Below are positions 1,915 to 26,552 of a DNA stretch of 64,000 nt, piece by piece. Each line of letters opens with the position of its first letter. The first letter of the stretch is position 1. This DNA is from a virus. The stretch lies in the IMG/VR virus record IMGVR_UViG_3300035698_022389, positions 32,001-96,000 of that record; one strand, given 5' to 3'. The position numbers and the translations under genes were made by a program. Below the pieces are notes generated by a model. The model did not search any database and was not told the DNA's origin. It saw only the letters and a program-made list of their open reading frames with translations.

Positions 1915-2679
1915 ATGTTAAGTGTGCATGATAAACTGAGAAATGCTTTTCGTGTAGGGAAGTTAAAAACGAGATCAGTATCACCTGAAGGAAAAATGGA
2001 ATGGAAATGTGTAACAGATGTCCATAGGGCTGAGGTTCCTTGGGAAGAAATTCGGAGGGTAGATACTAAATATGGTCATGCTTATTTAACTAAAGGGCAT
2101 AGAGTTTTTGTATCTCCTGTAATAAAAAAGAATGCTGGGGATTTAGTAGAGAATGATAGTGTTCTTGGCATAGATGCTTCAGATACTGTTTTTTATCCTA
2201 GTTTAACATCTATAGCTGTTAAACCCTCTCGTAAATATATGTATGATTTAACTGTTGCTGACTGGCATAATTTTGTTTTGTTTGATTCACGGATGGTTAT
2301 CAGTAATTGCCCTGACAAATTTTATCATTTCAGGCCACCTGAGTACGAAGGGGATATCGGACAGTATAATCGAATATTTGGTCAGATATGGGAAGACGAG
2401 GAACTTTTGGAGTACCTGCTGAGGTCTTTGGATTGGTTCAACATGTTCCCCCCACTAACTCAGAAGATCAATACTTTGACCATTCTGCTTCAAGCCATGC
2501 CCGCATGGAGGACAGCCATCCTGTGGGGTGCTATTACTCATGCTTGTTTTGCTTTATCGATAAATTGGGTCGCGGACGAATTTTCTGTTCGTGGTGATCA
2601 GGAGGTAACTGTAGTAACTAAATCAGGTAAAGAGATTTCTTTATCGATTCAAGAATTGTATGAGATATGCAAGAACTAA
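1915..2679 (+). CDS. Putative neck/head-tail adaptor, fragment 2 (131-aa IntC-1, 92-aa middle extein, 31-aa IntN-2)
   Basis: Block B LTKGHRVF, block F YMYDLTVADWHNF, block G VISN|C (Asn131 at 2305-2307, Cys+1 at 2308-2310); ends ...WVADEF|SVRGDQEVTV...SIQELYEICKN* (Ser at 2584-2586). Confidence 0.85.
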   Translation: MLSVHDKLRNAFRVGKLKTRSVSPEGKMEWKCVTDVHRAEVPWEEIRRVDTKYGHAYLTKGHRVFVSPVIKKNAGDLVENDSVLGIDASDTVFYPSLTSIAVKPSRKYMYDLTVADWHNFVLFDSRMVISNCPDKFYHFRPPEYEGDIGQYNRIFGQIWEDEELLEYLLRSLDWFNMFPPLTQKINTLTILLQAMPAWRTAILWGAITHACFALSINWVADEFSVRGDQEVTVVTKSGKEISLSIQELYEICKN

Positions 2680-2767
2680 TTAGTAAACGACAATTTATGG
2701 TAGGCAAAAGGGACTTGAAAAAGACTCCAGATATTTGTGTAGCTAGGGTGCAGGAGGTATTATTACA

Positions 2768-3451
2768 ATGTTGAGAATAAAAGAACAATGTGAAATCAGA
2801 GAATCTTTTAAGGAGGGTACTTTACAGGTAAAAAGTGTTGACCCTGTTACAAAAGGTGTGGTATTACAGCCTATTATTGAGGTGTTAAAACATAAAACCC
2901 CTGATAAAGTTATGTTAGAAGTGGTTACCGATTGTGGGACGGTGGTTACAACACAAGATCATTCTTTGTTTAAATCTGATATGGTATCTGTTGAAGTTTC
3001 CAATTTAAAAGAAGATGATGAAATAGCCTGGGTGGATGGTATTTATAAACCCATGAAAGTCAGAAAGATCAATGTAGTCCCTAATGAAGTTTTTACTTAT
3101 GATTTAAGTGTCCCTCCTTTTCAGAATTTTACACTCTCTAATGGAGCTGTAGCACATAATTCATATAGCATAGGCGGGGTATCCTTGGATATTGAGAAAT
3201 CCTCAAAATACGAATCCTTGAAACAAAATGCTGAAGGTCAATTAGAGAAAGCAGCTGAAGCAAAACAACGAACTGTTAAATTTATCCGAGGGTTACAGCA
3301 GCCCAGATTCGGCCTCGGAGTAAGGAGCAGTTTTGGCCCACATGTAGGTAACGGCATACTTAGCCCTCGGAGTTTTATGGCTTGGGCTGTTGCTGTTTTA
3401 ACACCTGCATTAGTTTTTGTTAGTTCTGCCAACAGTCTAGGTTTGGTCTAG
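2768..3451 (+). CDS. Putative neck/head-tail adaptor, fragment 3 (131-aa IntC-2 plus 96-aa C-extein)
   Basis: Strong SD AGGAGGT; block B TTQDHSLF, block F TYDLSVPPFQNF, block G GAVAHN|S (Asn131 at 3158-3160); extein begins SYSIGGVSLDIEK, resembling the S-x-S-x-G-x-x-S motif of head-tail adaptors. Confidence 0.85.
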   Translation: MLRIKEQCEIRESFKEGTLQVKSVDPVTKGVVLQPIIEVLKHKTPDKVMLEVVTDCGTVVTTQDHSLFKSDMVSVEVSNLKEDDEIAWVDGIYKPMKVRKINVVPNEVFTYDLSVPPFQNFTLSNGAVAHNSYSIGGVSLDIEKSSKYESLKQNAEGQLEKAAEAKQRTVKFIRGLQQPRFGLGVRSSFGPHVGNGILSPRSFMAWAVAVLTPALVFVSSANSLGLV

Positions 3452-3535
3452 GTTTTCGGTAAAAAGTTAATTATTTTTTATTAGTGTAGTTTGAGGTTGC
3501 TTGGAGAGATTATAATCTAGTGGTGGAGGTTTAAT

Positions 3536-3961
3536 ATGAGTGTTTCTGTAGAAAGGTTAATTCATCGGTATATGCAAGCATTTGTGTCTAAACAATCCCC
3601 GAAGGCCGTTGTTTATATTAGTAAAGACTCTGTATATTTTCAGGGTGCCCTTCCTTGTGGGGTTATGGGGTCTATTAAAGATATGATGAAAACTCATAAG
3701 AAGGGGTTGGATTTGTGTAAACAGACGGTTTTAGCATTACGCAAGGCATTTCCAACATGTAAAGCATGGAAATTACCCACAAAAGATTTTGATTATCTTG
3801 CAGGGGAGACTTCAAGTAGACTTTTCCCTTTGTTTTTTTCAACAGGACAACCAGCTTCTTTAGGGGTGTTTCAATTTGAACTTATGGATGTAGATGAAGT
3901 TGAGGCCATCACTCTTAAAGTGATGAAACATTTGGGTTGGGAAATTAAAATAATGGAATAA
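3536..3961 (+). CDS. Hypothetical protein, first gene of the AT-rich accessory cluster
   Basis: 141 aa, SD GGAGGT; N-terminus VERLIHRYMQA; lacks the RKHLVP motif. Confidence 0.6.
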   Translation: MSVSVERLIHRYMQAFVSKQSPKAVVYISKDSVYFQGALPCGVMGSIKDMMKTHKKGLDLCKQTVLALRKAFPTCKAWKLPTKDFDYLAGETSSRLFPLFFSTGQPASLGVFQFELMDVDEVEAITLKVMKHLGWEIKIME

Positions 3962-3968
3962 GGTAGTT

Positions 3969-4451
3969 ATGAAAAAACAAACATCTTTTCAAAAATTCAG
4001 TCCTGAAGGATTAAAGCAGGCATTAATTAAATTAGCTTCTGATAATCCTGAACTAAGGAAGCATTTAGTACCCCTTCTGAAAGAAGCTGGGTATAAACGT
4101 AGACCTGAGTTTACAATGGAGATTTCAAGGGGGGGCGCTGAATTTGGGTTTTATTACCCCTACGTGAAAACCAACATGGAAGAACAAAAAGAGAAATGCT
4201 GGGAAGAATTTAAGGCTATTGTAAAAATCATTTTTAAGAAATATAAGGGTAGGAAACTATATTTTAATTCTAATTTATCTGATATAATAGTTTTACCAAA
4301 AGAGTTTATGTTACATAAAAACAAAAAACCTAGTATTAGTGTCCCTGATGTGTTTAAGCATAAGAGTTTAAACATTGAAAAAGAAGTAAAACAGATTGTT
4401 AATCGCTTTGGTTGGGTTTTAGATATTGGTTGGGTCGCATATTATCATTAA
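3969..4451 (+). CDS. RKHLVP-motif protein (N-terminal motif plus unknown domain)
   Basis: GLKQALIKLASDNPELRKHLVPLLKEA at residues ~14-40. Confidence 0.7.
   Translation: MKKQTSFQKFSPEGLKQALIKLASDNPELRKHLVPLLKEAGYKRRPEFTMEISRGGAEFGFYYPYVKTNMEEQKEKCWEEFKAIVKIIFKKYKGRKLYFNSNLSDIIVLPKEFMLHKNKKPSISVPDVFKHKSLNIEKEVKQIVNRFGWVLDIGWVAYYH
4032..4089 (+). repeat. 58-bp perfect direct repeat, copy 1 (copy 2 at 5498-5555)
   Basis: ttagcttctgataatcctgaactaaggaagcatttagtaccccttctgaaagaagctg is identical at both positions and encodes the RKHLVP motif. Confidence 0.95.
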
Positions 4452-4499
4452 TCCAAGTCTGCAAATAAAGTTGGCCAAGGAAAGTATATGGTGTTTTAA

Positions 4500-5177
4500 A
4501 TGAAAAACTTTATCAGACATGCAACTTTGAGGGCATCCTCTAAAAAAGTTATTGATGCTTTTATCTTAAAGAAACCCCTTGAAAACCAATCTATGACTTC
4601 AACGGGGAAAGAACTCTCAAGTATTTCGATGGGTGGCCAACTACTTGCCAAATGGGTAGGCCGAAAAATAGCATTTGTAGGATTAGAGTCTTCTCGGACT
4701 GTATCCTCTATAGTTAGGTATCTTACGAAAAAGGCTGGTCACTCAATGGTGACTTTCGATTATGACCGAAAGGGTTTTAATCGGTCTATTCATTTTCAAA
4801 CGGGTGGGGATGTAAACGGTCCTCAGTATGATGGTTATGTTTATGCCAGGTTGCCTTGGCGGGATAACCAGTTTGTGGGCCAGTTAACTTGGACTGAGTA
4901 TCAGGATGAGTACAGTGTCCGAATGATTGAGGTTTTACCTGAATACCGAAGGACTGGTATTGGTAAAGCTCTGATGGAGTATTTTATGAAAGATCAAAAG
5001 ATTACTAAATCTGATATTAATACAGGGATGAGAACTCCTGATGGTTCTAAATTTTGGGATAAGTTATCCAAAGGGATGGAACACCCTGAGAATTTAAGAG
5101 CTAAAGTAATTAAGCTGGCTCACGAGAACCCTAAGTTACGAAAGCATTTAGTTCCTATTTTGAAAGAGGCTGAATAA
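4500..5177 (+). CDS. GNAT-family acetyltransferase domain protein with C-terminal RKHLVP motif
   Basis: GNAT motif A IEVLPEYRRTGIGKALME and downstream RTPDGSKFW; ends LRAKVIKLAHENPKLRKHLVPILKEAE. Confidence 0.7.
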   Translation: MKNFIRHATLRASSKKVIDAFILKKPLENQSMTSTGKELSSISMGGQLLAKWVGRKIAFVGLESSRTVSSIVRYLTKKAGHSMVTFDYDRKGFNRSIHFQTGGDVNGPQYDGYVYARLPWRDNQFVGQLTWTEYQDEYSVRMIEVLPEYRRTGIGKALMEYFMKDQKITKSDINTGMRTPDGSKFWDKLSKGMEHPENLRAKVIKLAHENPKLRKHLVPILKEAE

Positions 5178-5437
5178 TGGGAACTGGTAATAATAACAAC
5201 GATATAACATTTTTTGATTCTGGCCCAAACAAAACGAAATACATGCTAGCTACAGTAAATTCTACTATAAATAGCGATAAAGATACAAACAAGTATCCAC
5301 CGACTGAAAGACTAATAACGACTGAAACTATTGAAGTATATATTGGGGTTGGTGATCGTGCAGAATTTGTTACACATATTTTTGATGCAAAGAAGGCTGA
5401 AAACCAAAGGTTAAATAGAAAACTGAGTTCTTATTAG
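5177..5437 (+). CDS. Hypothetical protein
   Basis: 86-aa ORF coupled (TAATG) to the upstream gene; no recognisable motif. Confidence 0.45.
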   Translation: MGTGNNNNDITFFDSGPNKTKYMLATVNSTINSDKDTNKYPPTERLITTETIEVYIGVGDRAEFVTHIFDAKKAENQRLNRKLSSY

Positions 5438-6763
5438 GTGGAAAAGGGAAGGAAACCTTTCAAAATGTCTAAAGATTTATCAAAGTTAGTAAAGAAGTTA
5501 GCTTCTGATAATCCTGAACTAAGGAAGCATTTAGTACCCCTTCTGAAAGAAGCTGTTGTACCTATTAAACAAATGGCAAAAAAGGCTTCAATTAAAACAG
5601 TGGAGCAGTTTGGATTATTTAAAGTTTATGGGCCTTATACAGATATAGCTCCTTTGATTAAGTCTTTGAAGCAGTGGGGTTTTAGATATGAGCCTGTTCA
5701 TAAAGTTTGGGAGATGCCTTTAGAAAAGGTAACCCCAGCTTTACGTAAAAGATTGGATAAATTAATTGCAAAACAAACTCCTTGGGAGGATATTTTGCAA
5801 CAGGCTGTAACAAACGGTTGGGTTTTAAGTTTTGTTTATAACGAGGAATTGATTCAAGATGCTCGCAAATTAAAAGGGACTTGGGATAAAAAACATAAAT
5901 ATTGGGTATTCCCGACAGCAAGGGCTTATAAGGAGATGTCTGATATTGTTAAAGATAAAGAAGACATTTTGAATGAGATACTAAAAAAGAAAGAGGGTTA
6001 TCTGCAACAAAAAAAGGAGGCCCTGCGTAAGGGTTGGTTTGTACAGTTTGATTATGATACAGATTTGATAAAAGAAGCCAAATCTTTAAATGGCTTATGG
6101 GACACTAATCAGAAGGTATGGGTATTTCTTGATATTTCTGATTATAAGAAAATGAAACGTGCCATACATGAGGATGATGATAAAGATGTCCCCTCAAATG
6201 CTATTGTACGCAGTCAATCTAGTAAGAACAAGACTCCTCGTTTTCAAAAAGGAGATTCCTTTAGAGACCCTGAAAATCATAAGGTTTTAACAGTTTTCAA
6301 CATAATGTCCAAATACTATGCTGAGGATGGAAGGTCCTTTGGTTTGGGTATGGATAGAGGTTGGGCACATTCGTTTTATTGTAAACTGGCCGGAAAAAAA
6401 GGGGTGGCTGAAGTAGAATTACAAGAATTTAAAGAATTGTCTCGGCAGCAAATGGTTAAGGCATACCAGAATATGGTTAAGATGTTTAAGAAAAAAGGGA
6501 AATTCCCCAAACCTGGCTCAAAATTGATAACTTTACGTGGGAAAAAACATATGGAATCCGATACCTCCTCTATTCTTTATGGTGGCGGGCATTGGTTTGT
6601 GGTTGAGAGTGGTAAAATATGGTATGTAGAGAACAACGGGGCAGATGGTGATAATTGGGCTCATAACAATATTGCCACATCTGGTGCGGGGGCATTAGGG
6701 TGGTATCTCCCTTATTCTGAGGGGTTAGCTGAGGAGCTTAAAATTATGGATAAGAAACTTTGA
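5438..6763 (+). CDS. RKHLVP-motif protein with three HARP-like repeats
   Basis: Likely start ATG 5465; motif KKLASDNPELRKHLVPLLKEA; repeats FVYNEELIQDARKLKGTWDKKHKYWVF, FDYDTDLIKEAKSLNGLWDTNQKVWVF and a degenerate third copy. Confidence 0.65.
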   Translation: MEKGRKPFKMSKDLSKLVKKLASDNPELRKHLVPLLKEAVVPIKQMAKKASIKTVEQFGLFKVYGPYTDIAPLIKSLKQWGFRYEPVHKVWEMPLEKVTPALRKRLDKLIAKQTPWEDILQQAVTNGWVLSFVYNEELIQDARKLKGTWDKKHKYWVFPTARAYKEMSDIVKDKEDILNEILKKKEGYLQQKKEALRKGWFVQFDYDTDLIKEAKSLNGLWDTNQKVWVFLDISDYKKMKRAIHEDDDKDVPSNAIVRSQSSKNKTPRFQKGDSFRDPENHKVLTVFNIMSKYYAEDGRSFGLGMDRGWAHSFYCKLAGKKGVAEVELQEFKELSRQQMVKAYQNMVKMFKKKGKFPKPGSKLITLRGKKHMESDTSSILYGGGHWFVVESGKIWYVENNGADGDNWAHNNIATSGAGALGWYLPYSEGLAEELKIMDKKL

Positions 6764-7140
6764 TGTGGTGGGTTTATGTAATTCAATCTCAAGAAGTCCG
6801 GACAGGTAAAAAAGGAAATATTTTACCAGGGTTTCATTATGTAGGGTGTACTACTGATCCGGCTCGAAGGTTGCGTGAGCACAACGGTTTGTTGTCTGGG
6901 GGCGGGAAATATACCAGCAAGCACCGTCCTTGGGTGGCCCGAAGTCTTTATGGTCCTTATTTTGGCAGGTCTGAAGCAATGAAGGCTGAGTATGCTTTAA
7001 AGCATGGGAAACGCAGTACAGCTCGAACACGGTGGTCTGTAGAAGATTCCCCTTGGTGTCGAGGATTAGGTCCGAACGATCCGTGGGTGGTCAACGGTAT
7101 TTTTCCTATAGAACTCTGTAAGAAGGAGGAGTTTTTATAA
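6760..7140 (+). CDS. GIY-YIG endonuclease, SLX1-like
   Basis: WWVYVIQS...HYVGCTTDPARRLREHNG...GGKYTSKHRPW...EAMKAEYALKH matches the SLX1/GIY-YIG pattern. Confidence 0.85.
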   Translation: MMWWVYVIQSQEVRTGKKGNILPGFHYVGCTTDPARRLREHNGLLSGGGKYTSKHRPWVARSLYGPYFGRSEAMKAEYALKHGKRSTARTRWSVEDSPWCRGLGPNDPWVVNGIFPIELCKKEEFL

Positions 7141-7210
7141 GGTGTTGGCTGAAATAAAAAGAAAGCAAGGAGAAGTTAAAATGAGTAATTTACGTTCAGA
7201 ATTAGTGAAG
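7139..7210 (+). repeat. 72-bp near-perfect direct repeat, copy 1 (copy 2 at 8144-8215)
   Basis: 67/72 identical by manual alignment; ATG 7181 corresponds to ACG 8186. Confidence 0.9.
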
Positions 7211-7705
7211 CTAGCCAGTGACAACCCTGGGTTTCGAAAACACCTGGTTCCTATTCTGAAAGGGGAGCCTAGAAGTATGAAAAGGGCAAATGTTATGAAA
7301 AAAGAAGCTGGTGGTATGGCTAGCGCCTTAGATTTAGTGTTTTTGATCATAAGTCAGGAATCCTCTTCCAAAGGTCAGAAGATGTTTATGGATACTAAGA
7401 AAGCTCTTGAGTCTGATGAGCAGTCCAAGAAATTGATGTCCGAGGTGTTAAGGGGGGTGGCAAGATCCTTAATACTTGACCAAAAGGAAAACACGGCTTT
7501 AAACTACATCCGTATGGCAATGAAGAATGTTAGATCCGCCGGATCTGCCAGGAATTCTATTTTCAAGGCTGCTCATGCTCTTGGTATCAAACTTCCAAGT
7601 TCTATATTTGCATCTAATGACTCTGAATTACAGGAACAATTACAGAAGCTGGCCAATGAGAACCCAGAAGGTATCAGGAAGCATTTGGTTCCTCTTTTAA
7701 GATAA
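7181..7705 (+). CDS. RKHLVP-motif protein with two motif copies (N- and C-terminal)
   Basis: SD AAGGAG then ATG 7181 (track start 7142); MSNLRSELVKLASDNPGFRKHLVPILK and LQEQLQKLANENPEGIRKHLVPLLR*. Confidence 0.7.
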   Translation: MSNLRSELVKLASDNPGFRKHLVPILKGEPRSMKRANVMKKEAGGMASALDLVFLIISQESSSKGQKMFMDTKKALESDEQSKKLMSEVLRGVARSLILDQKENTALNYIRMAMKNVRSAGSARNSIFKAAHALGIKLPSSIFASNDSELQEQLQKLANENPEGIRKHLVPLLR

Positions 7706-7792
7706 CTTGGACTTTGATTTAGGTGGTTAGAAGATTACTTAAGTGAAATTGAGTTGGAAATTATAATACTTTCTATGTGAAAGGGTGGTGGA

Positions 7793-8581
7793 ATGAGTGA
7801 TACAAAATATTTACAGTTATTTCCAGTAATAGATAAAGCAGTAAAGAAATATTTATCTAAGTCCAAATATATAAAACGAATTAGGCTCAAAGGCAAAGAT
7901 AAACATTCTATTCTATATAGTGTGGATTGGGCATTTGAACCTCATAAAGATGCTCCAATCCCAGAATACTTTGCGGTAACTAGCACAGGGAGAACTCTTT
8001 ATTTGGAGTTGAGTGTCCCAGGGTTCTTTAGTTATTCATCACCAACTGAAATGTCTATGGATTTAGAGATTGCTCTTATCAACCCTGTTAAGGTTGAACA
8101 GAAGATTAAAGAGATTGCAAGAGCTATTGACCCTATAGCTTCCAAGGTGTTGACCGAAATAAAAAGAAAGCAAGGAGAAGTTAAAACGAGTAATTTACGT
8201 TCAAAGTTAGTGAAGTTATCCAATGAGAATCCTGATGGTATCAGGAAACATTTGGTTCCATTGCTGAAACAGGCTTTGGCTGGTCCAGATAAGAGTGGTC
8301 GGAATTGGAAAGAAATCAATGATTCCAAAGGTCATCGGTGGATGTGGTCTGGTAAACCTGGTCCTGTATTTGGGGTTTACGAATTTGAAGGCCCAGGAAT
8401 CCCTCTATACCGTCTTCAGACAATTTTAGACGATGGGGGTATGCTGAAATGGAAACGTCAGGTGAAAGACCCGAAAATGGCTTTTGCTCAAGCAGCCTCC
8501 GTTTGGAAAATGTTCCATGCTGATGGGACTATGGGCGGCAATCTTTTAATGGGTTGGAAAAGGATGGCTTCTAATAGATGA
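7793..8581 (+). CDS. RKHLVP-motif protein (internal motif between two domains)
   Basis: 262 aa; TSNLRSKLVKLSNENPDGIRKHLVPLLKQA at residues ~132-161. Confidence 0.7.
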   Translation: MSDTKYLQLFPVIDKAVKKYLSKSKYIKRIRLKGKDKHSILYSVDWAFEPHKDAPIPEYFAVTSTGRTLYLELSVPGFFSYSSPTEMSMDLEIALINPVKVEQKIKEIARAIDPIASKVLTEIKRKQGEVKTSNLRSKLVKLSNENPDGIRKHLVPLLKQALAGPDKSGRNWKEINDSKGHRWMWSGKPGPVFGVYEFEGPGIPLYRLQTILDDGGMLKWKRQVKDPKMAFAQAASVWKMFHADGTMGGNLLMGWKRMASNR

Positions 8582-8622
8582 ACGCTATTTAGAATTATTT
8601 CTAGTTATTTAAGGAAAATACA

Positions 8623-9519
8623 ATGAGTAATGGAATTAAAGACCTCAAAATATTGTTGGATATTAATGCTACATATCCTAAATTTGGTTCCCCTGAGTAT
8701 GAGCAGATGGTTACAAAGGCTGTTCTGCTCAAGAAGCCCTTGTTAGTAGCTTATACAAAGTTTGTTCAAAAAGAGGCATCTAAAGACAGGTCTGCCGATC
8801 CTGCAATGGTGTTCTTAGGTTCTATGGCTATGAATATTAATAGGGATTTTACAAAGCTGATTACCTCCACATCCAAGAACTATCCTGATTGGATATCTTT
8901 GTACAATGGTTTGGTTCCTAGAGGTAGAAAAATAGGTGGTAAAGCATATAAGTCAGCTTTTGCTAAAGGATTTGATGCAGCACATGGTCGAGGGACATTT
9001 GTTAGGGCTGAATTAAACAACAAGAAACAGAGGGCTTCTAGTAATTTACGTTCAAAATTAAGCCGTGATGAGAAAATACCAAGATATACAGAGTTATTAT
9101 CAGCCAGGATTTCCAAATTGGCTTCGGACTATCCTGAGTTACGAAAGCATTTGGTCCCTTTATTGAAACAGGGTTCCATTTTCAAATATGAGTCTTCTAC
9201 ACCTATAGACAAAAGGGTTCTGGTTAGAAACCTTAATAAAGTCCTTGGGAATGTTTCTAGAGGATTCTTCAATGATGAGCATTGGAGAGGGCCTAAGAGA
9301 GTATGGGATGCTTTGAATAAGATAGGTATAACTTGGGAGCAGACAAAGAACTTCTATGATGGGAAAATGCCCCCACAATCAAAGACTTGGAAGTTTGAAG
9401 TTGAGTTCACCTCTAAAAAAGGTAGGGCAGCTAAATTATATGGTCACATGGTAGCATCTGGTGCTGGTTCTGTAAATGACCCCTTGAGCCGTTATGATAT
9501 TGTCGTTTACGTAGGATAA
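8623..9519 (+). CDS. RKHLVP-motif protein (internal motif)
   Basis: 298 aa; SNLRSKL...ISKLASDYPELRKHLVPLLKQG, then a domain ending ASGAGSVNDPLSRYDIVVYVG. Confidence 0.7.
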   Translation: MSNGIKDLKILLDINATYPKFGSPEYEQMVTKAVLLKKPLLVAYTKFVQKEASKDRSADPAMVFLGSMAMNINRDFTKLITSTSKNYPDWISLYNGLVPRGRKIGGKAYKSAFAKGFDAAHGRGTFVRAELNNKKQRASSNLRSKLSRDEKIPRYTELLSARISKLASDYPELRKHLVPLLKQGSIFKYESSTPIDKRVLVRNLNKVLGNVSRGFFNDEHWRGPKRVWDALNKIGITWEQTKNFYDGKMPPQSKTWKFEVEFTSKKGRAAKLYGHMVASGAGSVNDPLSRYDIVVYVG

Positions 9520-9538
9520 AATTTAAGGATAAATTAAG

Positions 9539-9991
9539 ATGAGTACTTTACGAGATAAAGTAATAAAACTTGCCCACAAGAATCCTGAACTTAGGAAACA
9601 CCTGGTTCCGTTACTAAAGAGTGCTGGTGGTGGGATATATCAAATTTTCTTTAATATATTTAAGGAAGCCTTTAAAGAATCTTGTACTAAACTATACACT
9701 CAATTTTACCGTGATTATCGTTGGGAGGATATAGAAGGAGTGTCTTCAAGTATCCAACCAGGACTTTGGCAAGTTGTTTCTAAATATAGTCCTATGGTTG
9801 CAGTTTCTTATCATGTGACTGGTACGAAACTGACTATTACTTGTAGTCTTTTAAATCTTCATCATTCTCTATCTAAAATGGAAAAGGTTATTCCTTTGGG
9901 GGAATTTCTAGCCCGTGATATGACTGAAAAAGACATGCAAATCCTTATTATGAAATTCATTATTAGTTGTGCTAAGAGGGTTTGGAGATAA
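9539..9991 (+). CDS. RKHLVP-motif protein (N-terminal motif)
   Basis: MSTLRDKVIKLAHKNPELRKHLVPLLKSA at the N-terminus. Confidence 0.7.
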   Translation: MSTLRDKVIKLAHKNPELRKHLVPLLKSAGGGIYQIFFNIFKEAFKESCTKLYTQFYRDYRWEDIEGVSSSIQPGLWQVVSKYSPMVAVSYHVTGTKLTITCSLLNLHHSLSKMEKVIPLGEFLARDMTEKDMQILIMKFIISCAKRVWR

Positions 9992-10139
9992 GAATCCTAA
10001 ACTCCGACCTCATCTGGTTCCATTATTGAAAATAGCAGCTATTTTCAATAATGATTTCTCTGAGCTAATCGATAAAAGGATTCTGGTCAGGAAACTTAAT
10101 AAGGAGAATCTTATTATACAGGATGTAAGTTATAAATGA
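9969..10139 (+). pseudogene. Relic RKHLVP-motif fragment, paralogous to the C-terminal domain start of 8623-9519
   Basis: Not in the ORF track; the frame from 9990 reads KNPKLRPHLVPLLKIAAIFNNDFSELIDKRILVRKLNK...*, versus RKHLVPLLKQGSIFKYESSTPIDKRVLVRNLNK in 8623-9519. Confidence 0.65.
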
Positions 10140-10175
10140 CCACTAAAATGGGATTAACCTCAAGGAGAAATTACG

Positions 10176-10706
10176 ATGAGTGATTTACGTTTAAATTTAG
10201 TGAAGTTAGCCAATGATAACCCTGATGGTATCAGGAAGCATTTGGTTCCTCTATTAAAACAGGCTAAAACCTATGACTTTGAGGAAGGGGACCCCATAGG
10301 AACTAATGAGAAAATGTGGGCTGAATATAAACCTAGTCTTAAACTTCAAGTACAGAAGTTGGAGCAGCTCGGTCTGAGATACATTAAAGTGCAACGTCAT
10401 GGTATGTTGGCTTTGTCATTCAAATATAAGAAATGGACAATTGAGATATCAATCCTTCGGTTATTTGAGTTGAGAAACGTAAAAGGTCTGGGTGCTTTTG
10501 CCAGTCGTTTCGGTAAATTAGAACAGTTAATCGAAGACGAGATCCAAAATATCAAGCTGGCTGGTGGCCCACGTCAATATTCCCCGTTCTTCTCAACCTA
10601 TTATAGTAAGGTGAAAGCCATCATGGGAGGGGCAAAGACCAAAGGTTTGGCTATATCTTTTGTTACAGAAGTTATCAAAGAGATGGGTGTTCGGATTTGG
10701 ACATAA
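10176..10706 (+). CDS. RKHLVP-motif protein (N-terminal motif)
   Basis: SD AAGGAG; MSDLRLNLVKLANDNPDGIRKHLVPLLKQA. Confidence 0.7.
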   Translation: MSDLRLNLVKLANDNPDGIRKHLVPLLKQAKTYDFEEGDPIGTNEKMWAEYKPSLKLQVQKLEQLGLRYIKVQRHGMLALSFKYKKWTIEISILRLFELRNVKGLGAFASRFGKLEQLIEDEIQNIKLAGGPRQYSPFFSTYYSKVKAIMGGAKTKGLAISFVTEVIKEMGVRIWT

Positions 10707-10768
10707 TGAAATTTTAGGTTTTCAAAGTTAAAAAAAGTTTTGTAAGATATATAGCTTCTCGTAAAATG

Positions 10769-10810
10769 GCAAAACCCAGCAGGAATTAACCTGACGGGTT
10801 TTGTCGTTTG
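10769..10810 (+). terminator. Intrinsic terminator closing the accessory cluster
   Basis: caaaaccc/gggttttg and cagg/cctg stems followed by T-rich sequence. Confidence 0.65.
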
Positions 10811-13704: not shown

Positions 13705-14332
13705 AGCTCAGATTATTTGCACTTGCCCATCCATATGGATACAAGATTTGAACTTAAATATGAAACGTGGCCAGTCGGCAATGGTTTCAGAATCTAAAGC
13801 TAAGGCTTCAACGGATTTGGGTTTAGCACGTAGGAATGGTGGCGTTAGTATTACGTATGTACAACGATTTCAGGAACTTAAACCCCCTCAAGTAGAACCT
13901 GTGGTTCAGGTATCGAAGAAAGTACCCTTACCAACTCCTTTGCATCAACCTGAGTCTCCTGTCCTTCCTGCTGAAAGAGTCAGGGTGGAGAGAATGACCT
14001 TGGACGAGGATGCTTTGGTGGATAAACTGGCAGCCAAAATGAATTCATTACGAAGCAGTAACACCAATTCTTTAATAGATTCTTTGATAGGTGAAGTTCA
14101 GGCCATGAGGAAAGAGTTCTCAGAGGGTCAAAAGAACCATGGTCAGATTGTGAAAGAGGTTGTTCATTCTGAGGGTAGGGTAAAAGAAGATGTCCCTATG
14201 TTTATCCCTAAGACTATTATGGGGAAAAAAGCAGGGGATGTTAAGATAGAGATTGAAGAAACTACTTCAGAAAGCACTGTGGATGAGGCTTCGGAAGCTT
14301 TACGTGCTTTACGGAAAAAGGAGAAATCATGA
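13697..14332 (+). CDS. Hypothetical protein coupled to the actin-like ATPase
   Basis: Likely ATG 13697 (track start 13673); Pro-rich linker, coiled coil, C-terminal ASEALRALRKK helix; ATGA overlap with the next gene. Confidence 0.6.
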   Translation: MIEAQIICTCPSIWIQDLNLNMKRGQSAMVSESKAKASTDLGLARRNGGVSITYVQRFQELKPPQVEPVVQVSKKVPLPTPLHQPESPVLPAERVRVERMTLDEDALVDKLAAKMNSLRSSNTNSLIDSLIGEVQAMRKEFSEGQKNHGQIVKEVVHSEGRVKEDVPMFIPKTIMGKKAGDVKIEIEETTSESTVDEASEALRALRKKEKS

Positions 14333-15348
14333 CAGATGAAAAAACACCTGTGATTCCAGTACCTTTTGGCGTGGGGTGTGATATTGGGACTATGAATATT
14401 GTGTCTGCCCGTCGTGGAAAAGAAGGGATTACGACCAAACGTATGCGTGATGTCTTCATCGATTTGCCTATAACTGCCAAGAAGATGTTGAAATTGTCTT
14501 CTACCAGCTTTGTTGAACGAGAAGACGATGTTTTGATTCTTGGGGATGCTGCTTTGGAGACGGCTAATGTTTTTGGAACCCCTCCTCGACGCCCACTTTC
14601 GGATGGAATAATCTCGGCTAGTGAAATAGACAGCTTGGAAGTCCTTGGTATGCTTATCAAGAATGTGCTGGGTAAACCCAGGACTCCGAACGAGGCTTGT
14701 TATTTCTCTGTACCAGCAGAACCGATAGATAGGCCTGACAAGGACATAATTTACCATCGTGGAGTATTTGAACGAATTGTTGCTGAGTGTGGATATACTC
14801 CATATGCAGCCAATGAAGCTATGGGTATTGTGTATTCTGAAACAGCTAATGAAGGATTTTCTGGTGTAGGAATCTCTTTTGGTAGCGGCATGACGAACGT
14901 TGCCCTATCCATCAACACCATTGAAGGTCTGACGTTTTCCATTGCCCGTGGCGGCGACTGGATTGATGCAGGTGCTGCTAGTTCTGTCGGCCAGACTCAG
15001 GCACGTATATGTGCATTGAAAGAGAAGGGTTTTGATTTGATGAAGCCTGAAGGTCGGGAACAAGAAGCTCTGGCCTTCTATTATAAGTCGGCCATTGACT
15101 ATGCTCTGGATAACATTGAAGAACGTTTCAAGGCCATTCAAAATCAATTTGTTTTGGCTAATCCTGTCCCCCTCGTAGTGTCAGGTGGTACGAGTTTAGC
15201 AGGTGGGTTCATGGAGTTTTTCAAGTCTGTCTTTGAGAAACGGAAGAAGTTCCCTATCGAGATTTCCGAGATTCGACATGCTCAGGAACCCCTGAATGCC
15301 GTTGCTTACGGTTTGTTGATTCAAGCTATCCAAGAACACGAGGATTAG
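14329..15348 (+). CDS. Actin-like ATPase (MreB/ParM/FtsA superfamily)
   Basis: Phosphate-1 VGCDIGTMNIV, phosphate-2 GISFGSGMTNV, adenosine VVSGGTSLAGG, connect-2 EPLNAVAYGL. Confidence 0.85.
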   Translation: MTDEKTPVIPVPFGVGCDIGTMNIVSARRGKEGITTKRMRDVFIDLPITAKKMLKLSSTSFVEREDDVLILGDAALETANVFGTPPRRPLSDGIISASEIDSLEVLGMLIKNVLGKPRTPNEACYFSVPAEPIDRPDKDIIYHRGVFERIVAECGYTPYAANEAMGIVYSETANEGFSGVGISFGSGMTNVALSINTIEGLTFSIARGGDWIDAGAASSVGQTQARICALKEKGFDLMKPEGREQEALAFYYKSAIDYALDNIEERFKAIQNQFVLANPVPLVVSGGTSLAGGFMEFFKSVFEKRKKFPIEISEIRHAQEPLNAVAYGLLIQAIQEHED

Positions 15349-16351: not shown

Positions 16352-16572
16352 AAACATTTTCAGTTGCTTAATGTTTCAGTATTTCTTGAGAAGCCCCCTT
16401 TACCCAAGAACCCAAAGAACTTTAATATTGGTCAAACACGGGAGGTGACCCGTGTCATATTAGATAATCCTGATGGAGAAGAATTTGAAACAGGTCTTAT
16501 GACGGCTACTATTAGCGGGGAACTGCTCGACGAATAATTCCCCTATGAAAGCACCTACATAAGGAGGTGCTC

Positions 16573-17772
16573 ATGTACTTCAGATTAACCGAGGCATTAA
16601 AAAAACGACTCATCATGGAACTGAGGAATTATTGGTCTTACCATCCTCTATATCCAGACCTGCCTGACCACATCATTGGGAAATACTCATTTAGAGAACG
16701 CCCTTCAACTGGCATTATTGTAAAAACTGGTGGTGGGAGTCATGTTTCGTTGTCAGCTGACAACTACATAGGTATTCAAGAGAGCTATGTCAATTTGACC
16801 AGGTACAAAAACAAACCAGGACTGGCCATTGAATGGGTCAGAGAAGATGCTGTTGCTATCCAGAAAAATAATGGAGTTTTCCCAACCCCACCTGGTGTTT
16901 ATTATGTCCAATTGACTGAGGACAGGGAATTCTGGGTGGATGCCCTTGTTAATATTTACAATGAGATTCTGACTCCTGTAGACACCTTTACATACTCCAT
17001 GACAGCAGATCCTTTACAAGGGACTCTCCGTATCTTTGAAATGCCTGCTCGGTATCAGCTGGTGGAGGATGAAAATTACACCGTTGAGGTGGATGGCCAA
17101 GGGAAACCCACAGGTGAGATTACTCTGAAACAAGCTCTGACAGGGAATAGATATTTGGTTGCCGACTATAAACATCCAATCGGTTCTCAGGGTCCTTATA
17201 CCATCGACCCAGGCTTTGCAAACAATACAGCAATTCCAGGAGTCGTTCTGGCTTTTGGTCGACGAAACAAAAAAGGAGATATTCAGGCTGTCGTCGTGGA
17301 TGACGTTCGAAGGTCATCTGCTCAGGTTTATGGGGGTAAGTGGGAAATCTCAATGGAGTTTGATGTTGTGGCTAGAGATGTCTATGCCCAGCAGGAAATT
17401 GCTGACCAAACCGTCATTTATTTGTGGGGTATCCTTAGACCTCGGTTATCTTCTGAAGGTATTGAAATGTCCGAGATTTCTCTTGGTGGGGAGTCTGAAG
17501 AAGTTTATGATGAGAGTGGTGATGATTATTTCTATAACTCATCGTTTTCGTTGACAGTTACGACGGATTGGGAAGTCCATATCCCATTGAGTGCTTTCCT
17601 CCGTCAAGTAACCCCAGCCAGCCGTGAGTATACTGAATATTTGGCTACAATTTCTGATGACCAATTGAGAGAAGCTGGGGCAGGGATACGTCAAGCAGGT
17701 GAGATGGGATTGGAAGTTATGAGGGATCCTTATTTCGTTGGGAGGACAGCAACATTTGAAGTAATTCGGTAG
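16573..17772 (+). CDS. Putative tail terminator/tail-completion protein
   Basis: SD AAGGAGG then ATG 16573; ~400 aa; located two genes upstream of the sheath; C-terminal beta-rich terminator-like domain. Confidence 0.55.
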   Translation: MYFRLTEALKKRLIMELRNYWSYHPLYPDLPDHIIGKYSFRERPSTGIIVKTGGGSHVSLSADNYIGIQESYVNLTRYKNKPGLAIEWVREDAVAIQKNNGVFPTPPGVYYVQLTEDREFWVDALVNIYNEILTPVDTFTYSMTADPLQGTLRIFEMPARYQLVEDENYTVEVDGQGKPTGEITLKQALTGNRYLVADYKHPIGSQGPYTIDPGFANNTAIPGVVLAFGRRNKKGDIQAVVVDDVRRSSAQVYGGKWEISMEFDVVARDVYAQQEIADQTVIYLWGILRPRLSSEGIEMSEISLGGESEEVYDESGDDYFYNSSFSLTVTTDWEVHIPLSAFLRQVTPASREYTEYLATISDDQLREAGAGIRQAGEMGLEVMRDPYFVGRTATFEVIR

Positions 17773-17815
17773 TTTTTTAATTTTTCATATCTTCTTAGAG
17801 AAAGGAACCAGATAA

Positions 17816-18265
17816 ATGCCCGTATATACATATCAATGTGGTTGTGGAATTCGATTTGAGGGTTCGGCCAGCATGGCTAAACATTCTAAACCTCATAAAT
17901 GTCCTGACTGTGGGGAGATGGCTGATCGATTGATGCCCTCAGATGTAAATGGTGTTTTCAATCAGGAAGTTTCAGGACCTGTTCCTCAGAATACTGGTGT
18001 GGATGGTTTGGATGCCCATATTGACAGGGTGATAGGTCAGTCCGCAGAACAAGGTCGAAAAGCTCATGTGGCTCGTGTCGATACTAAGAAAGAATTGTTA
18101 CGGGATAATCCTGGGGCAACTGGAAAAGACATTACGAAAACCTCTGATGGGGAGTTTCATTTGATGTCCTTGGAGGAACGGGATGCCCGAGATACAGCTC
18201 TCTCTATCAATAATCAGGCTATGAATGCCATTGAACAGGAGAGGATGAAATCCGCTCCTAAATAA
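17816..18265 (+). CDS. FmdB-like zinc-ribbon protein
   Basis: MPVYTYQCGCG...HKCPDCGE...RLMPS pattern. Confidence 0.7.
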   Translation: MPVYTYQCGCGIRFEGSASMAKHSKPHKCPDCGEMADRLMPSDVNGVFNQEVSGPVPQNTGVDGLDAHIDRVIGQSAEQGRKAHVARVDTKKELLRDNPGATGKDITKTSDGEFHLMSLEERDARDTALSINNQAMNAIEQERMKSAPK

Positions 18266-18444: not shown

Positions 18445-21400
18445 ATGGCCTTTCCAGGAAAAAACTACAGCCCGCCAGGAGTTTATACTCGAACACTTTT
18501 CGAGAATCCCGTTTCTGGAGCTATTGACAGTTTCAAAATCCCGATTTTCATCGGTGAGGGGAACGAATTTTTAACCCAGAATAATCTGGAGGTCGTTCGG
18601 GGATCATCCCAGAAAGTTGACCAAAAGATTGTAGGTGAAGATGAGGCAGGACGTGCTGTGGTCAGCACTACCCAAGCAGGTGTCATCACATTGGGAGATT
18701 TTAACGGAGTCTTGGACACGATTCAAGTCCGTAAATACCCCATTGTAGATGGGCAAGGCTCGGGTGTAACTACGAACAGCCGGGCGGATGTGGTAGTTAC
18801 CATCAATAACCAGATTATGGTTGTTCGACAGGTGACTGGGGCTACAGGAGTCGTCAAGTTGGCTCAACCCCCACAAGTTACAGATGAAATCCGTGTTACT
18901 TACTTTTTCAAACGCACGGATACTCTGACTACTGATGATGTCAGTGCCCAAGTCAACCCGAATCCTGCAGTTGTCAGGGGTGTTGATGGTATTGCCGACA
19001 TAGACTCCCCAGTCGGTCAAGAAGGTTCGGTTGGTTCCAGCATAGTCATTGATTTGCATGGGGACATCACGAATGCCTCCGGTCAGGTTGTTGTTCCAGC
19101 TAACAATGTTCTCAATCTAGTGATTGATGGTGTGGCATATGTTATCACCATTGCTCCTCGGAATGATTACACAATGGCTCAAATTGCTGCATCTATTACG
19201 GCAGCTAACAAGGGAACTCTGACTGCTGGTGCTTTCACTAATAATTTTGGTCTTTCGGTACTTTTATTAAATGCTAGTGGTAGCATCGTAGTGAAAGCAG
19301 GCTCAGCTAATGCTCCTTTGGGGCTCATAACTGGTTCTGCAGACACTCGAACTACAACTTTCTATACCTACGAAGGTCCTATCGTTGATGGTTCTAACGG
19401 TGGTGTTGCAACAACAGACCCCGCAAAAGTAGTGGTTAAAGTCAATAACAGTCAGGTCATTCCAGTATCAGTGAATGGAACCACACGGACAGTTACTTTG
19501 TTAGCAGCTCCTAAAGCTGGTTCAACTGTGACCATCCAATACTGGTTTAATGCCTGGCAGGATACCTTTGATTACTTGCTACATAATGGCATCACTGAAA
19601 TTACTCAGTGTGGTGTTGCTCCGGATTCTAAATCTTACATCCAGGATGCTGATTTTGTCCTGAAAGATGATAAGATTGTCTGGGGTACGGCAGCATTGAT
19701 AGCCAGTGGTGTTCATACTACAGGTGCTGTTTTGTTTGGGGAAACCCAAATTACTAGCACCTTGGTAGACAACAAGACATTCCTTTCAGTTTGTACCTCA
19801 GTCGTACAGAGCAGTGGTGGTATCTCCTCTGATAACCGTATGGATTTCACACTTCCTTTCCAACCAACTCTGGGTAATGGACGAAACACCCCCTTGGGTC
19901 AGAGTTTGTTCCAGACGGTTTCCAATGGACGTATTGATCTTCCAACCAACCGCCCTGATGTGGTGGATGTATATTGGGGTTACGATGTTCAGGATGCTCT
20001 CGAAAGAGGTGGGGTGGCTGTAGATAAAGTGGAAGGTATCACTGTTACGTTGGCTGAGGCTGTTCCAGTCGGGGCCACCGTGTTTGCATCCTTCTGGTAC
20101 AATCTCCTGACAGACACTGAATTCACCTTGTCTTGTGTGAACCCCGGAGCTTCAGGCATCGGTACATATACCGTTGAAGATAAAGGTGACAACACTGTCT
20201 ACAGTGCTACATATAACACCAGTACAAAGGGTTCCTCTCTTAATGGTGTGACTCTGGAATTCCCATCAGGTTCTGAATTGACACCCGATCTTCACTTTGA
20301 AGGTTTGTCTGGTGATGATTTTGTTGGGCCTGTTGAAGAAATCGTGACAGTACAGTTTGCTTCTCGTGTAGCAACTCCAGCAAAATGGACGCTGCCTGGG
20401 AACGGACCTTATGAGTTCATTAAAGAGTACTCTGATAGACTCAGGGTTAAACTGCACACTTACGAATCCGTTAGTGCCGCGGGTCTGAATCTTGATAATC
20501 CTTCTGGTAGTGCATCCGTTCCTGGACATGGTGGTGGGTTCTTTGCTTCCATCGTCGGTGATGAAGTGGATTACACAGGTGGAACCAGTGCAACTATTGG
20601 TCAAAGTTATTCTTTGGCAGCTGCTGAAGATTTCTACCTTCAAGTAGATGATGCCAATATTCTGGTGAAAACATCCAGTACAGTAACCAACGTAGATGTT
20701 AGCTACTTTGCAGATGTCATCAACGAAGCTGCCAGCGGTCATCAAGACATAGCCGTAGCAGGTGGTGTTAGCACTATTGAATTGCCGCACACCAAATCCG
20801 ACGTGAATAATTATTACGTTGGCTGGAGAGTGGTTATCGGTAATCATGCTCTTGGTGGAGCAACTCAGGGTCAGTACAAAACTATCACAGCTTATGATGG
20901 AACTGCTTGGATAGCAACTCTGGATTCTGCTTGGGCTGGTGGGGCTGTTGCAGTAGGAACTCCTTACTTCATTTATAACCCTGATGCCCGTTCTACAATG
21001 GTCGGTGCAACAGAGTTTAATGGCCCCGTAACAATCACAGCCTCTGCCCATGACAAACTTAAAGTGGGTTATATTGGTGATGTTGTCGGTACAGAAGGTT
21101 TCGAGATTACATTGGGTGCCGCAGCTTATGCTACCCCAGCTCTCTTGGCTGCCCATATCCAAAGTAGAATTGACACAGCTATTATAGCCCGTGTTTTGAT
21201 CACACCAAATCTGGCTGGTTTCAATATTGAATGTACGGCTAATGCTCAAGCTAAGTTGCAGTTTAAATTGCAGCTTCCAGGGTTAGACAATGCTGGTTAC
21301 ATCCAGTTCCTCGATGCTACCAATGCTCCTGTTGAAGATTTTGCAGTGGTTGCAGGCTTAGATACAGGGGCAGCAATTGGTGACGGTCAGGCAGCTCTCC

Positions 21401-25864: not shown

Positions 25865-26551
25865 ATGGATTACATTTATTTTTTACATGATCGTACATCT
25901 AATGCTATCAAAATTGGATGCTCAAAATATCCAGAACAACGGATGAGGGAAATTCAAATAATGATTCCTGGTGATGCCTTTCCTTTGAGGTATGTTGAAG
26001 TGGCTGGGAATGGGTTTGATGTTGAGCGTACTTTACATATGAAGTTTCGGGGGATTCGGATAAAAGGAGAGTGGTTTAAAGCAACACCTGAGCTTTTGGA
26101 TTTTGCTGAATCAGGAGTTCTTCCTAATTCTACAAAAGTTGAAGTAGTTTTAACACCTTCAACTCGTGTGTCTGTCCCACGGTTATCTTTGAAAGAGCTA
26201 ACTGCTCAAACAAAGGTGGCAGCTAGGACTGTCCGTTATTATGTTTCTGAGGGGTTACTAAAACCTCCTGTTACTTCGGGGAAGTACGCTAAATATACAG
26301 AGGAGCATATTAAAACTATTAATGATATTCAAAACATGCAAGAGGAAGGGATGTCTTTGGGAGAGATAAGACAACGAATTTCACCTGCGGAGTTAGTTAT
26401 AGATATTCACAAGAAAAGGGCAACCTGTGTTACTCCTGTTGTAGGAGTGAAAATGATAATTGATGAAGATGTCCCATCACATATCAGTCATGCATTTATT
26501 AAGGCTGTGGTAGATGCAGCCAAGACATTACCAACATACAAAGGAGATTGA
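25865..26551 (+). CDS. T5orf172/MUG113-type GIY-YIG domain fused to MerR-type HTH
   Basis: YIYFL...IKIGCSKYPEQRM...ERTLHMKF...GEWF; then LSLKEL...ARTVRYYVSEGLLKPP...YTEEHI...GMSLGEIR. Confidence 0.8.
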   Translation: MDYIYFLHDRTSNAIKIGCSKYPEQRMREIQIMIPGDAFPLRYVEVAGNGFDVERTLHMKFRGIRIKGEWFKATPELLDFAESGVLPNSTKVEVVLTPSTRVSVPRLSLKELTAQTKVAARTVRYYVSEGLLKPPVTSGKYAKYTEEHIKTINDIQNMQEEGMSLGEIRQRISPAELVIDIHKKRATCVTPVVGVKMIIDEDVPSHISHAFIKAVVDAAKTLPTYKGD

Positions 26552-26552
26552 A

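Follow-up and report, generated by a model that had tools for sequence, protein, structure and literature searches.

The internal proteins of phage T4 are diverse and have only a capsid targeting sequence (CTS) in common (PMC3012670). Where effector genes adjoin morphogenesis genes, packaging of their products in the phage head is commonly inferred (PMC9503650), and the scaffolding protein of P22 binds coat protein through a helix-turn-helix (10.1101/2022.12.13.520362). Here we describe a locus that recalls these systems in part. It lies in a window of 64,000 nucleotides, bases 32001–96000 of one 132,879-bp virus record (IMGVR_UViG_3300035698_022389; coordinates are those of the window unless stated otherwise), and it consists of a cluster of genes whose otherwise dissimilar products carry the same peptide of about 28 residues (27–30 amino acids per copy), which we call the tag. 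The best-supported general statement about the tag is that it would act as a portable protein-docking handle. The leading reading, to which we give a probability of about 40%, is that the tagged proteins are docked to the virion interior and so loaded into the capsid.

The tag has the motif L-R-x-x-L-(V/I)-K-L-A-x-x-N-P-E-(L/GI)-R-K-H-L-V-P-L-L-K and occurs in ten copies, nine of them full and one a relic. A six-frame scan of the window placed the core R(K/P)HLVP at nucleotides 4056, 5139, 5522, 7235, 7676, 8243, 9142, 9593, 10005 (the relic, RPHLVP) and 10233, all on the plus strand within 3969–10706 and inside the open reading frames (ORFs) given by an earlier note on this DNA, which had reported ten occurrences of an RKHLVP consensus. 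The count was confirmed with a profile built from the nine full copies and run against the complete 132,879-bp genome in all six frames, a search that the earlier note had proposed. The full copies scored 49–56 bits (E about 1e-15) and the relic 23.7 bits, and no tag was found outside the cluster; the next best match had E > 3, indicating that the copies are not due to chance and that none lies beyond the cluster. When the eight codons of RKHLVP(L/I)L were compared among the nine copies, 166 differences were synonymous and 14 non-synonymous, demonstrating that selection acts on the tag peptide and not on the DNA. The cluster, hereafter the island, extends from 3536 to 10706, and its features and borders are as follows.

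3536–3961, plus strand: first island gene, untagged and basic (isoelectric point (pI) 9.1), function without assignment; TTATAAT at 3510 before it
3996–4091, plus strand: tag copy 1, near the N-terminus of ORF 3969–4451 (160 amino acids, pI 9.7, cargo without assignment)
5079–5174, plus strand: tag copy 2, at the C-terminal end of ORF 4500–5177 (225 amino acids, GNAT acetyltransferase domain at residues 120–168)
5177–5437, plus strand: untagged ORF of 86 amino acids inside the island (pI 6.6, function without assignment)
5462–5557, plus strand: tag copy 3, N-terminal in ORF 5438–6763 (441 amino acids; probable true start at the ATG at 5465)
Cargo of ORF 5438–6763: three tandem repeats weakly matching DUF5710 and phrog_24323, and a C-terminal domain without assignment
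6760–7140, plus strand: untagged GIY-YIG nuclease-domain gene inside the island
7175–7270, plus strand: tag copy 4, N-terminal in ORF 7178–7705 (listed from a GTG at 7142)
7616–7702, plus strand: tag copy 5, at the C-terminal end of ORF 7178–7705
7761–7767, plus strand: TTATAAT box, intergenic, a candidate promoter
8183–8278, plus strand: tag copy 6, internal in ORF 7793–8581 (262 amino acids)
9082–9177, plus strand: tag copy 7, internal in ORF 8623–9519 (298 amino acids, pI 10.05)
9539–9628, plus strand: tag copy 8, N-terminal in ORF 9539–9991 (150 amino acids)
9969–10139, plus strand: relic ORF of 56 amino acids with half a tag (RPHLVPLLK); the stretch after it resembles ORF 8623
10176–10268, plus strand: tag copy 10, N-terminal in ORF 10176–10706 (176 amino acids, cargo without assignment; the homologue in relative L007 is 71% identical)
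10764–10809, plus strand: terminator-like hairpin 3′ of the last tagged gene (−25.7 kcal/mol, z −4.06), followed by a U-rich tract

The full copies are N-terminal in five ORFs (3969, 5438, 7142/7178, 9539 and 10176), internal in two (7793 and 8623) and C-terminal in two (4500 and the second copy of 7142/7178); since copies 4 and 5 both lie in ORF 7178–7705, its product is a two-tag protein. The island genes are closely packed, each is preceded by a Shine–Dalgarno sequence, and the G+C content of the island is 0.36–0.40 compared to 0.43 in its flanks. The terminator-like hairpin with its U-rich tract agrees with the earlier proposal that the cluster has its own terminator. Intergenic TTATAAT boxes occur only three times in the genome (3510, 7761 and 10888), 26–35 nucleotides before the starts at 3536, 7793 and 10923, and they may be promoters that bound and split the island, of a class unused by the other head genes. 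The relic ORF also contains a perfect palindrome with a 15-bp stem (10021–10053), which may be an internal terminator or the scar of a rearrangement; the last residues of the tag (PLLKIA) are encoded by its left arm.

AlphaFold2 modelled the tag from 47 aligned natural copies with a predicted local distance difference test score (pLDDT) of 90, as a helix at residues 4–15, a five-residue turn at N-P-x-x and a second helix at residues 21–31. The tag is accordingly drawn here as a predicted, autonomously folding helix-turn-helix hairpin. Two prolines, an invariant Arg, a near-invariant His and a K are among its conserved positions, together with wide hydrophobic faces on both helices, and the conserved hydrophobic positions exceed those that a two-helix hairpin needs. 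Taken together, the conserved residues and the hydrophobic faces would provide a surface for binding a partner. The earlier note had spoken of a helical docking tag; the helical part of this agrees with the model, and docking is what we infer. A model of the full two-tag protein was all-helical and contained the same hairpins, but its confidence was too low (pLDDT 52, predicted template modelling score (pTM) 0.33) for the packing of tag against tag to be read from it.

No known family accounted for the tag. All island proteins were searched, and the tag region had no match in Pfam, PHROGs or NCBIfam; its profile had no relevant match among PDB sequences at E ≤ 10, Foldseek returned nothing for the model at E ≤ 0.001, and a full-text literature search for the string RKHLVP yielded no paper. 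The module is undescribed in curated families, the PDB and the literature. The earlier note had allowed that the motif might prove to be a known domain of unrelated function, and no known domain matched in Pfam, NCBIfam, PHROGs, the PDB or Foldseek. Identity with a HEAT repeat, a helix-hairpin-helix (HhH) or a SAP domain was considered and dropped, as no such Pfam family matched; these modules contrast with the tag in their glycines and linker length.

The proteins that carry the tag have little else in common. With the tags masked, the carriers in the window showed no significant BLAST similarity to each other, apart from the resemblance between the relic and ORF 8623 and a stretch of 11 residues before the tag common to ORFs 7142 and 7793, and the view that the tag is attached to dissimilar proteins was thereby upheld. 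Of the cargo domains named at first reading, the GNAT domain of ORF 4500 passed the Pfam cut-off (30.9 bits against 27), whereas the HARP-like assignment of ORF 5438 was weakly supported, its repeats matching DUF5710 below the Pfam cut-off (E 0.0017) and phrog_24323 at 5e-7; this repeat protein may bind nucleic acid. The tagged island proteins are strongly basic, with a pI of 9.5–10.1, whereas the median for the genome is 5.6. The two-tag protein (7178–7705) has a cargo that falls into a small family (with P0155, P0156 and L008:9707–10090) that has the conserved ending R-N-x-I-F-K-A-A-H-A-L-G-I-K-L-P-S-x-M-F; in two relatives this ending is the C-terminus, and no RKHLVP tag follows it.

The tag is also widespread beyond this genome. 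When the profile was searched against 1.84 billion representative proteins, 1,376 carrier clusters were found at E ≤ 0.001, 75 of them at E ≤ 1e-10; the details given here for metagenomic carriers rest on the best ~150 of the 1,376. The best 150 carriers contain 261 tag copies (110 N-terminal, 109 internal and 42 C-terminal), with one to five per protein. In proteins with a single tag it is N-terminal in 49 of 68, and 40 of the 109 internal copies have a Met at the start of the tag. Two to five tags are present in 83 of the 151 top carriers, often with charged low-complexity linkers and no other domain. Across the wider carrier family the median pI is 9.2, and 36% of carriers are acidic once the tag is removed. 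The cargo of the best carriers is mostly without a known domain, the few matches being to WGR, GNAT and zinc ribbons, and no MuF, portal or other head domain was found fused to the tag by Pfam or PHROG searches of the window carriers and 149 top carriers. In five multi-tag metagenomic carriers (P0006, P0012, P0017, P0018 and P0029) further short motifs are common to the charged linkers, for example S-R-F-E-E-G...D-P-T-x-N-M-S-x-E-D...W and G-E-V-P-E-A-F-K-x-Q-W, which suggests that multi-tag carriers may be mosaics of several portable peptide modules.

The tag is viral and almost absent from cellular genomes. All ten carriers whose source was checked were metagenomic, IMG/VR contigs with the tag range from 38 to 536 kb, and among 185,579 species genomes it was present in two 3-kb contigs of metagenome-assembled genomes only. 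In GenBank phages a tblastn search with the tag gave one weak match, in an uncultured 485-kb phage, and the genome had no DNA similarity to any GenBank phage. Word-indexed protein searches with two carriers returned two to three relatives each.

Several findings bear on how the tag reaches new genes. An exact 58-bp repeat joins two copies (4032–4089 = 5498–5555), and an alignment of four copies showed that the repeated unit comprises the Shine–Dalgarno sequence, the ATG and the tag, so that the tag spreads as a 5′ cassette of ribosome-binding site, start codon and tag. In ORF 7793 the DNA before the internal tag duplicates the start of ORF 7178 and its ribosome-binding site, except that ATG has become ACG and the preceding stop has been lost, demonstrating that an N-terminally tagged gene was fused to the gene before it. 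The relic at 9969–10139 derives from the tag of ORF 8623 and the stretch that follows it, and has since decayed. The earlier note had called the tag position-independent. Copies at all three kinds of position do exist in the window, but the term is too strong, given the N-terminal location of most single tags and the gene fusion behind the internal copy of ORF 7793. We also found that tags within a contig are 60% identical compared to 53% between contigs, a difference reached by 0 of 2,000 label shuffles; this likeness could reflect recent duplication or tuning to one partner. The GIY-YIG gene at 6760–7140 is the sole island gene conserved in relatives (44–87% identity), and 23 of 52 long loci have it upstream of the homologue of a 470-amino-acid protein, encoded at the 3′ flank of the island, whether or not tags are present. 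We rejected the idea that the tag and GIY-YIG are strictly linked: they are weakly associated (odds ratio 3.6, p 0.05), in a set of loci that are not independent of one another.

We then consider where in the genome the island lies. In genome coordinates, the record begins with genes for a terminase (30–1673), a portal protein (2260–5532), a polyprotein of 2,531 amino acids, a head protease (16407–18023) and a major head protein (20446–21369), all on the plus strand. A putative neck gene and then the island follow downstream of these head genes, on the same strand. The earlier note had placed the cluster inside the morphogenesis region, and this holds on the upstream side only, because the downstream genes have no recognisable structural family. 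PHROGs searches of the conserved genes just 3′ of the island and of five larger genes further on returned no structural family, the PDB search gave no structural assignment for the 470-amino-acid and actin-like proteins, and the ESM Atlas held nothing usable for the product of ORF 10176 or the 470-amino-acid protein. The actin-like gene (14329–15348, plus strand, 339 amino acids) matches Pfam Volactin, an archaeal actin homologue family, from end to end (E 1.3e-72) and had no PHROG or PDB sequence match; in relatives it is 71–87% identical and likewise lies downstream of the island. Further along, a gene at 26514–29033 (plus strand) encodes 839 amino acids with VIT and von Willebrand A domains. 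It stands in a run of very large genes, and those near it encode 1,776, 1,095, 1,384, 817 and 3,926 amino acids and matched no PHROG family.

The same arrangement recurs in relatives. In eight of them (L001, L002, L004, L006, L007, L012, L024 and L025) a tag island lies between the neck homologue and the conserved 470-amino-acid gene, and the number and kind of tagged genes vary. Among 81 loci with a homologue of the 470-amino-acid gene (45–87% identity), 27 have tags, with about 55 copies upstream of that gene versus 9 downstream. Tags also lie just upstream of the terminase (L008, L013, L014 and L026), and in L005 a homologue of a head-block protein of our genome, in the middle of the head block, has a C-terminal tag. 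In the 133-kb relative L013 there is a tag after the portal gene, where our genome has the 2,531-amino-acid polyprotein. Separate genes replace the polyprotein there (L013:7953–11249), one of them 61% identical to polyprotein residues 195–433; the gene at L013:10497–11249 carries an RKHLVP-type tag, and a further tag match lies just upstream in a frame not kept as a gene. In many relatives the head-gene block has a fixed site at which the set of tagged genes is hypervariable.

Based on these findings, we propose that the tag most likely docks a shifting repertoire of accessory proteins, most of them basic, onto a single shared partner. The most likely partner would be the inside of the assembling virion, meaning the procapsid interior, the scaffold or the portal region, and the tagged proteins would then be packed and delivered with the DNA, like the T4 internal proteins by their CTS. 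We infer all three steps, namely the binding of a partner, its location in the virion and the injection of the cargo. Capsid loading, which the earlier note had already put forward, is favoured by the location of the island among the head genes of many relatives, the usual N-terminal position of the tag, the basic and unrelated cargo, the portable and selected nature of the tag, the parallel with T4 and the precedents of P22 and of packaged effectors. More tentative still is the fuller picture, in which a large clade of uncultured phages (~40 to >500 kb) would load fast-exchanged effectors by means of the tag for co-injection, the linker-rich multi-tag proteins would be multivalent internal scaffolds, and cargo would be recruited by recombination at the cassette of ribosome-binding site, ATG and tag.

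A number of results weigh against capsid loading. In the genome profile search, none of the head, portal, scaffold and protease genes of this genome carries or resembles the tag. There is no conserved cleavage site on either side of the tag, the residue two positions after LL(K/R) being E in 26% of 245 copies. The genes downstream of the island lack a structural family, as described above, the island may have promoter-like TTATAAT boxes of its own, and there is no cultured relative, the single weak match among GenBank phages being to the uncultured 485-kb phage. The polyprotein of the genome has another candidate address tag. Finally, in two relatives with complete genomes, of 436 and 536 kb, the tags are dispersed over five to seven sites, and those sites without recognisable structural genes adjoin RtcB, RNA ligase, RNase HII, clamp loader, thymidylate kinase, sigma factor and DNA methylase genes. 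Separately, an R-x-A-x-x-aromatic motif of the polyprotein was considered as a shared element and rejected, as it was found in the polyprotein only.

The dispersed sites in the huge relatives, among RNA-repair, replication and sigma-factor genes, are what would be expected if the tag docked instead to a hub outside the virion, recruiting assorted effectors in the infected cell to the replication or transcription machinery or to a filament such as the phage's actin-like protein. The arguments from the hairpin and its binding face apply equally to such a hub. The core of the tag stays highly conserved across phages in which identity of the 470-amino-acid protein has fallen to 45%, in keeping with a strongly conserved partner, and the actin-fold gene, which is conserved together with the flank of the island, is found 3.6 kb downstream. 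However, in relatives on smaller contigs every tagged gene that was seen belongs to the terminase-to-neck block and lies on its strand, and no candidate hub was identified. We regard a hub in the infected cell as less probable than capsid loading, which is retained as the leading reading.

Multi-tag proteins raise another possibility, that the tag associates with itself. Hairpins would pair into helical bundles, and proteins with several tags would cross-link single-tag clients into an inner body, a scaffold-like core or a condensate. A lone two-helix hairpin is usually unstable without a partner, and both the two to five tags in more than half of the top carriers (83 of 151), often joined by charged low-complexity linkers, and the greater likeness of tags within a contig point in this direction. 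That likeness could come from recent duplication alone, however, and the low confidence of the two-tag model leaves the packing unreadable. Self-association appears unlikely; it is compatible with capsid loading.

The basic residues conserved at the start and end of helix 2 (R, K, H and K/R) would also suit a small hairpin that binds DNA or RNA and so tethers the cargo to it, as would the mostly basic carriers and the WGR, zinc-ribbon and DUF5710-like domains among them. But no known DNA-binding hairpin, HhH and SAP included, resembled the tag in Pfam and PDB searches, the HhH glycines are missing from most copies, the many conserved hydrophobic positions point to a protein interface, and over a third of carriers turn acidic when the tag is taken away; nucleic-acid binding is quite improbable as the role of the tag. 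The least probable account, already disfavoured, is that the tag has no function as a peptide and is chiefly a cassette for recombination, which the resident GIY-YIG nuclease, for example, might spread: the exact 58-bp repeat, the joint travel of ribosome-binding site, ATG and tag and the conserved GIY-YIG gene in the island are in keeping with it, but the codon differences are overwhelmingly synonymous, the peptide is kept in C-terminal and internal copies, and GIY-YIG is present in eight long loci without tags.

Even without a known partner, the tag defines an undescribed family of at least 1,376 protein clusters and marks the joints of phage gene shuffling and fusion. If it is an address label, it defines the proteins that a large group of uncultured phages sends to one destination, and if that destination is the capsid and then the host, the set would serve as a catalogue of candidate effectors for host takeover and anti-defence, almost none with an assigned function.

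Comparison with described systems places the tag among shared address peptides on phage accessory proteins, which are already known, as a module that is itself undescribed. The closest is the CTS of the T4 proteins IPI, IPII, IPIII and Alt (PMC3012670, PMC9026906), which like the tag is a short conserved peptide on diverse basic accessory proteins, encoded at a fast-changing locus among late and head genes, with an N-terminal position as the usual one and several carriers per genome. Our locus likewise has diverse carriers in a hypervariable locus among head or late genes. The CTS, however, is about 10 residues long, strictly N-terminal and cut off by the head protease at a Glu site, whereas the tag, at about 28 residues, is predicted to fold as a hairpin, does not resemble the CTS in sequence, occurs also at internal and C-terminal positions and in up to five copies, and has no conserved (L/I)-x-E site beside it. 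Packaging has been demonstrated in T4, while for the tagged proteins it is a proposal. The tag system thus resembles the T4 CTS in outline and departs from it in length, strict N-terminal position and protease site.

The coat-binding domain of the P22 scaffold (10.1101/2022.12.13.520362, PMC9965877, PMC9962691) is, like the tag, a small basic helix-turn-helix; it docks onto the inside of the procapsid and can carry fused cargo. A helix-turn-helix of about 30 residues with basic residues is also what AlphaFold2 predicted for the tag (pLDDT 90). No match to the solved P22 domain in sequence or fold was found by the PDB profile search (E ≤ 10) or Foldseek, the presence of that domain in the PDB set being unconfirmed. 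The P22 domain forms the C-terminus of a single scaffold protein, which leaves the capsid, whereas here the tag is on many accessory proteins and on no scaffold gene product. MuF-fused and polyvalent head-packaged effectors (Iyer et al., PMC9503650) share with the tagged proteins the principle of variable effectors on a common handle, encoded beside packaging and head genes; their handle is a large structural domain (MuF or portal), and none was detected in the tagged proteins. If capsid loading is true, phages would have a second answer, with a different structure, to the problem for which T4 uses its CTS, and the tag would be a possible tool for loading cargo into capsids.

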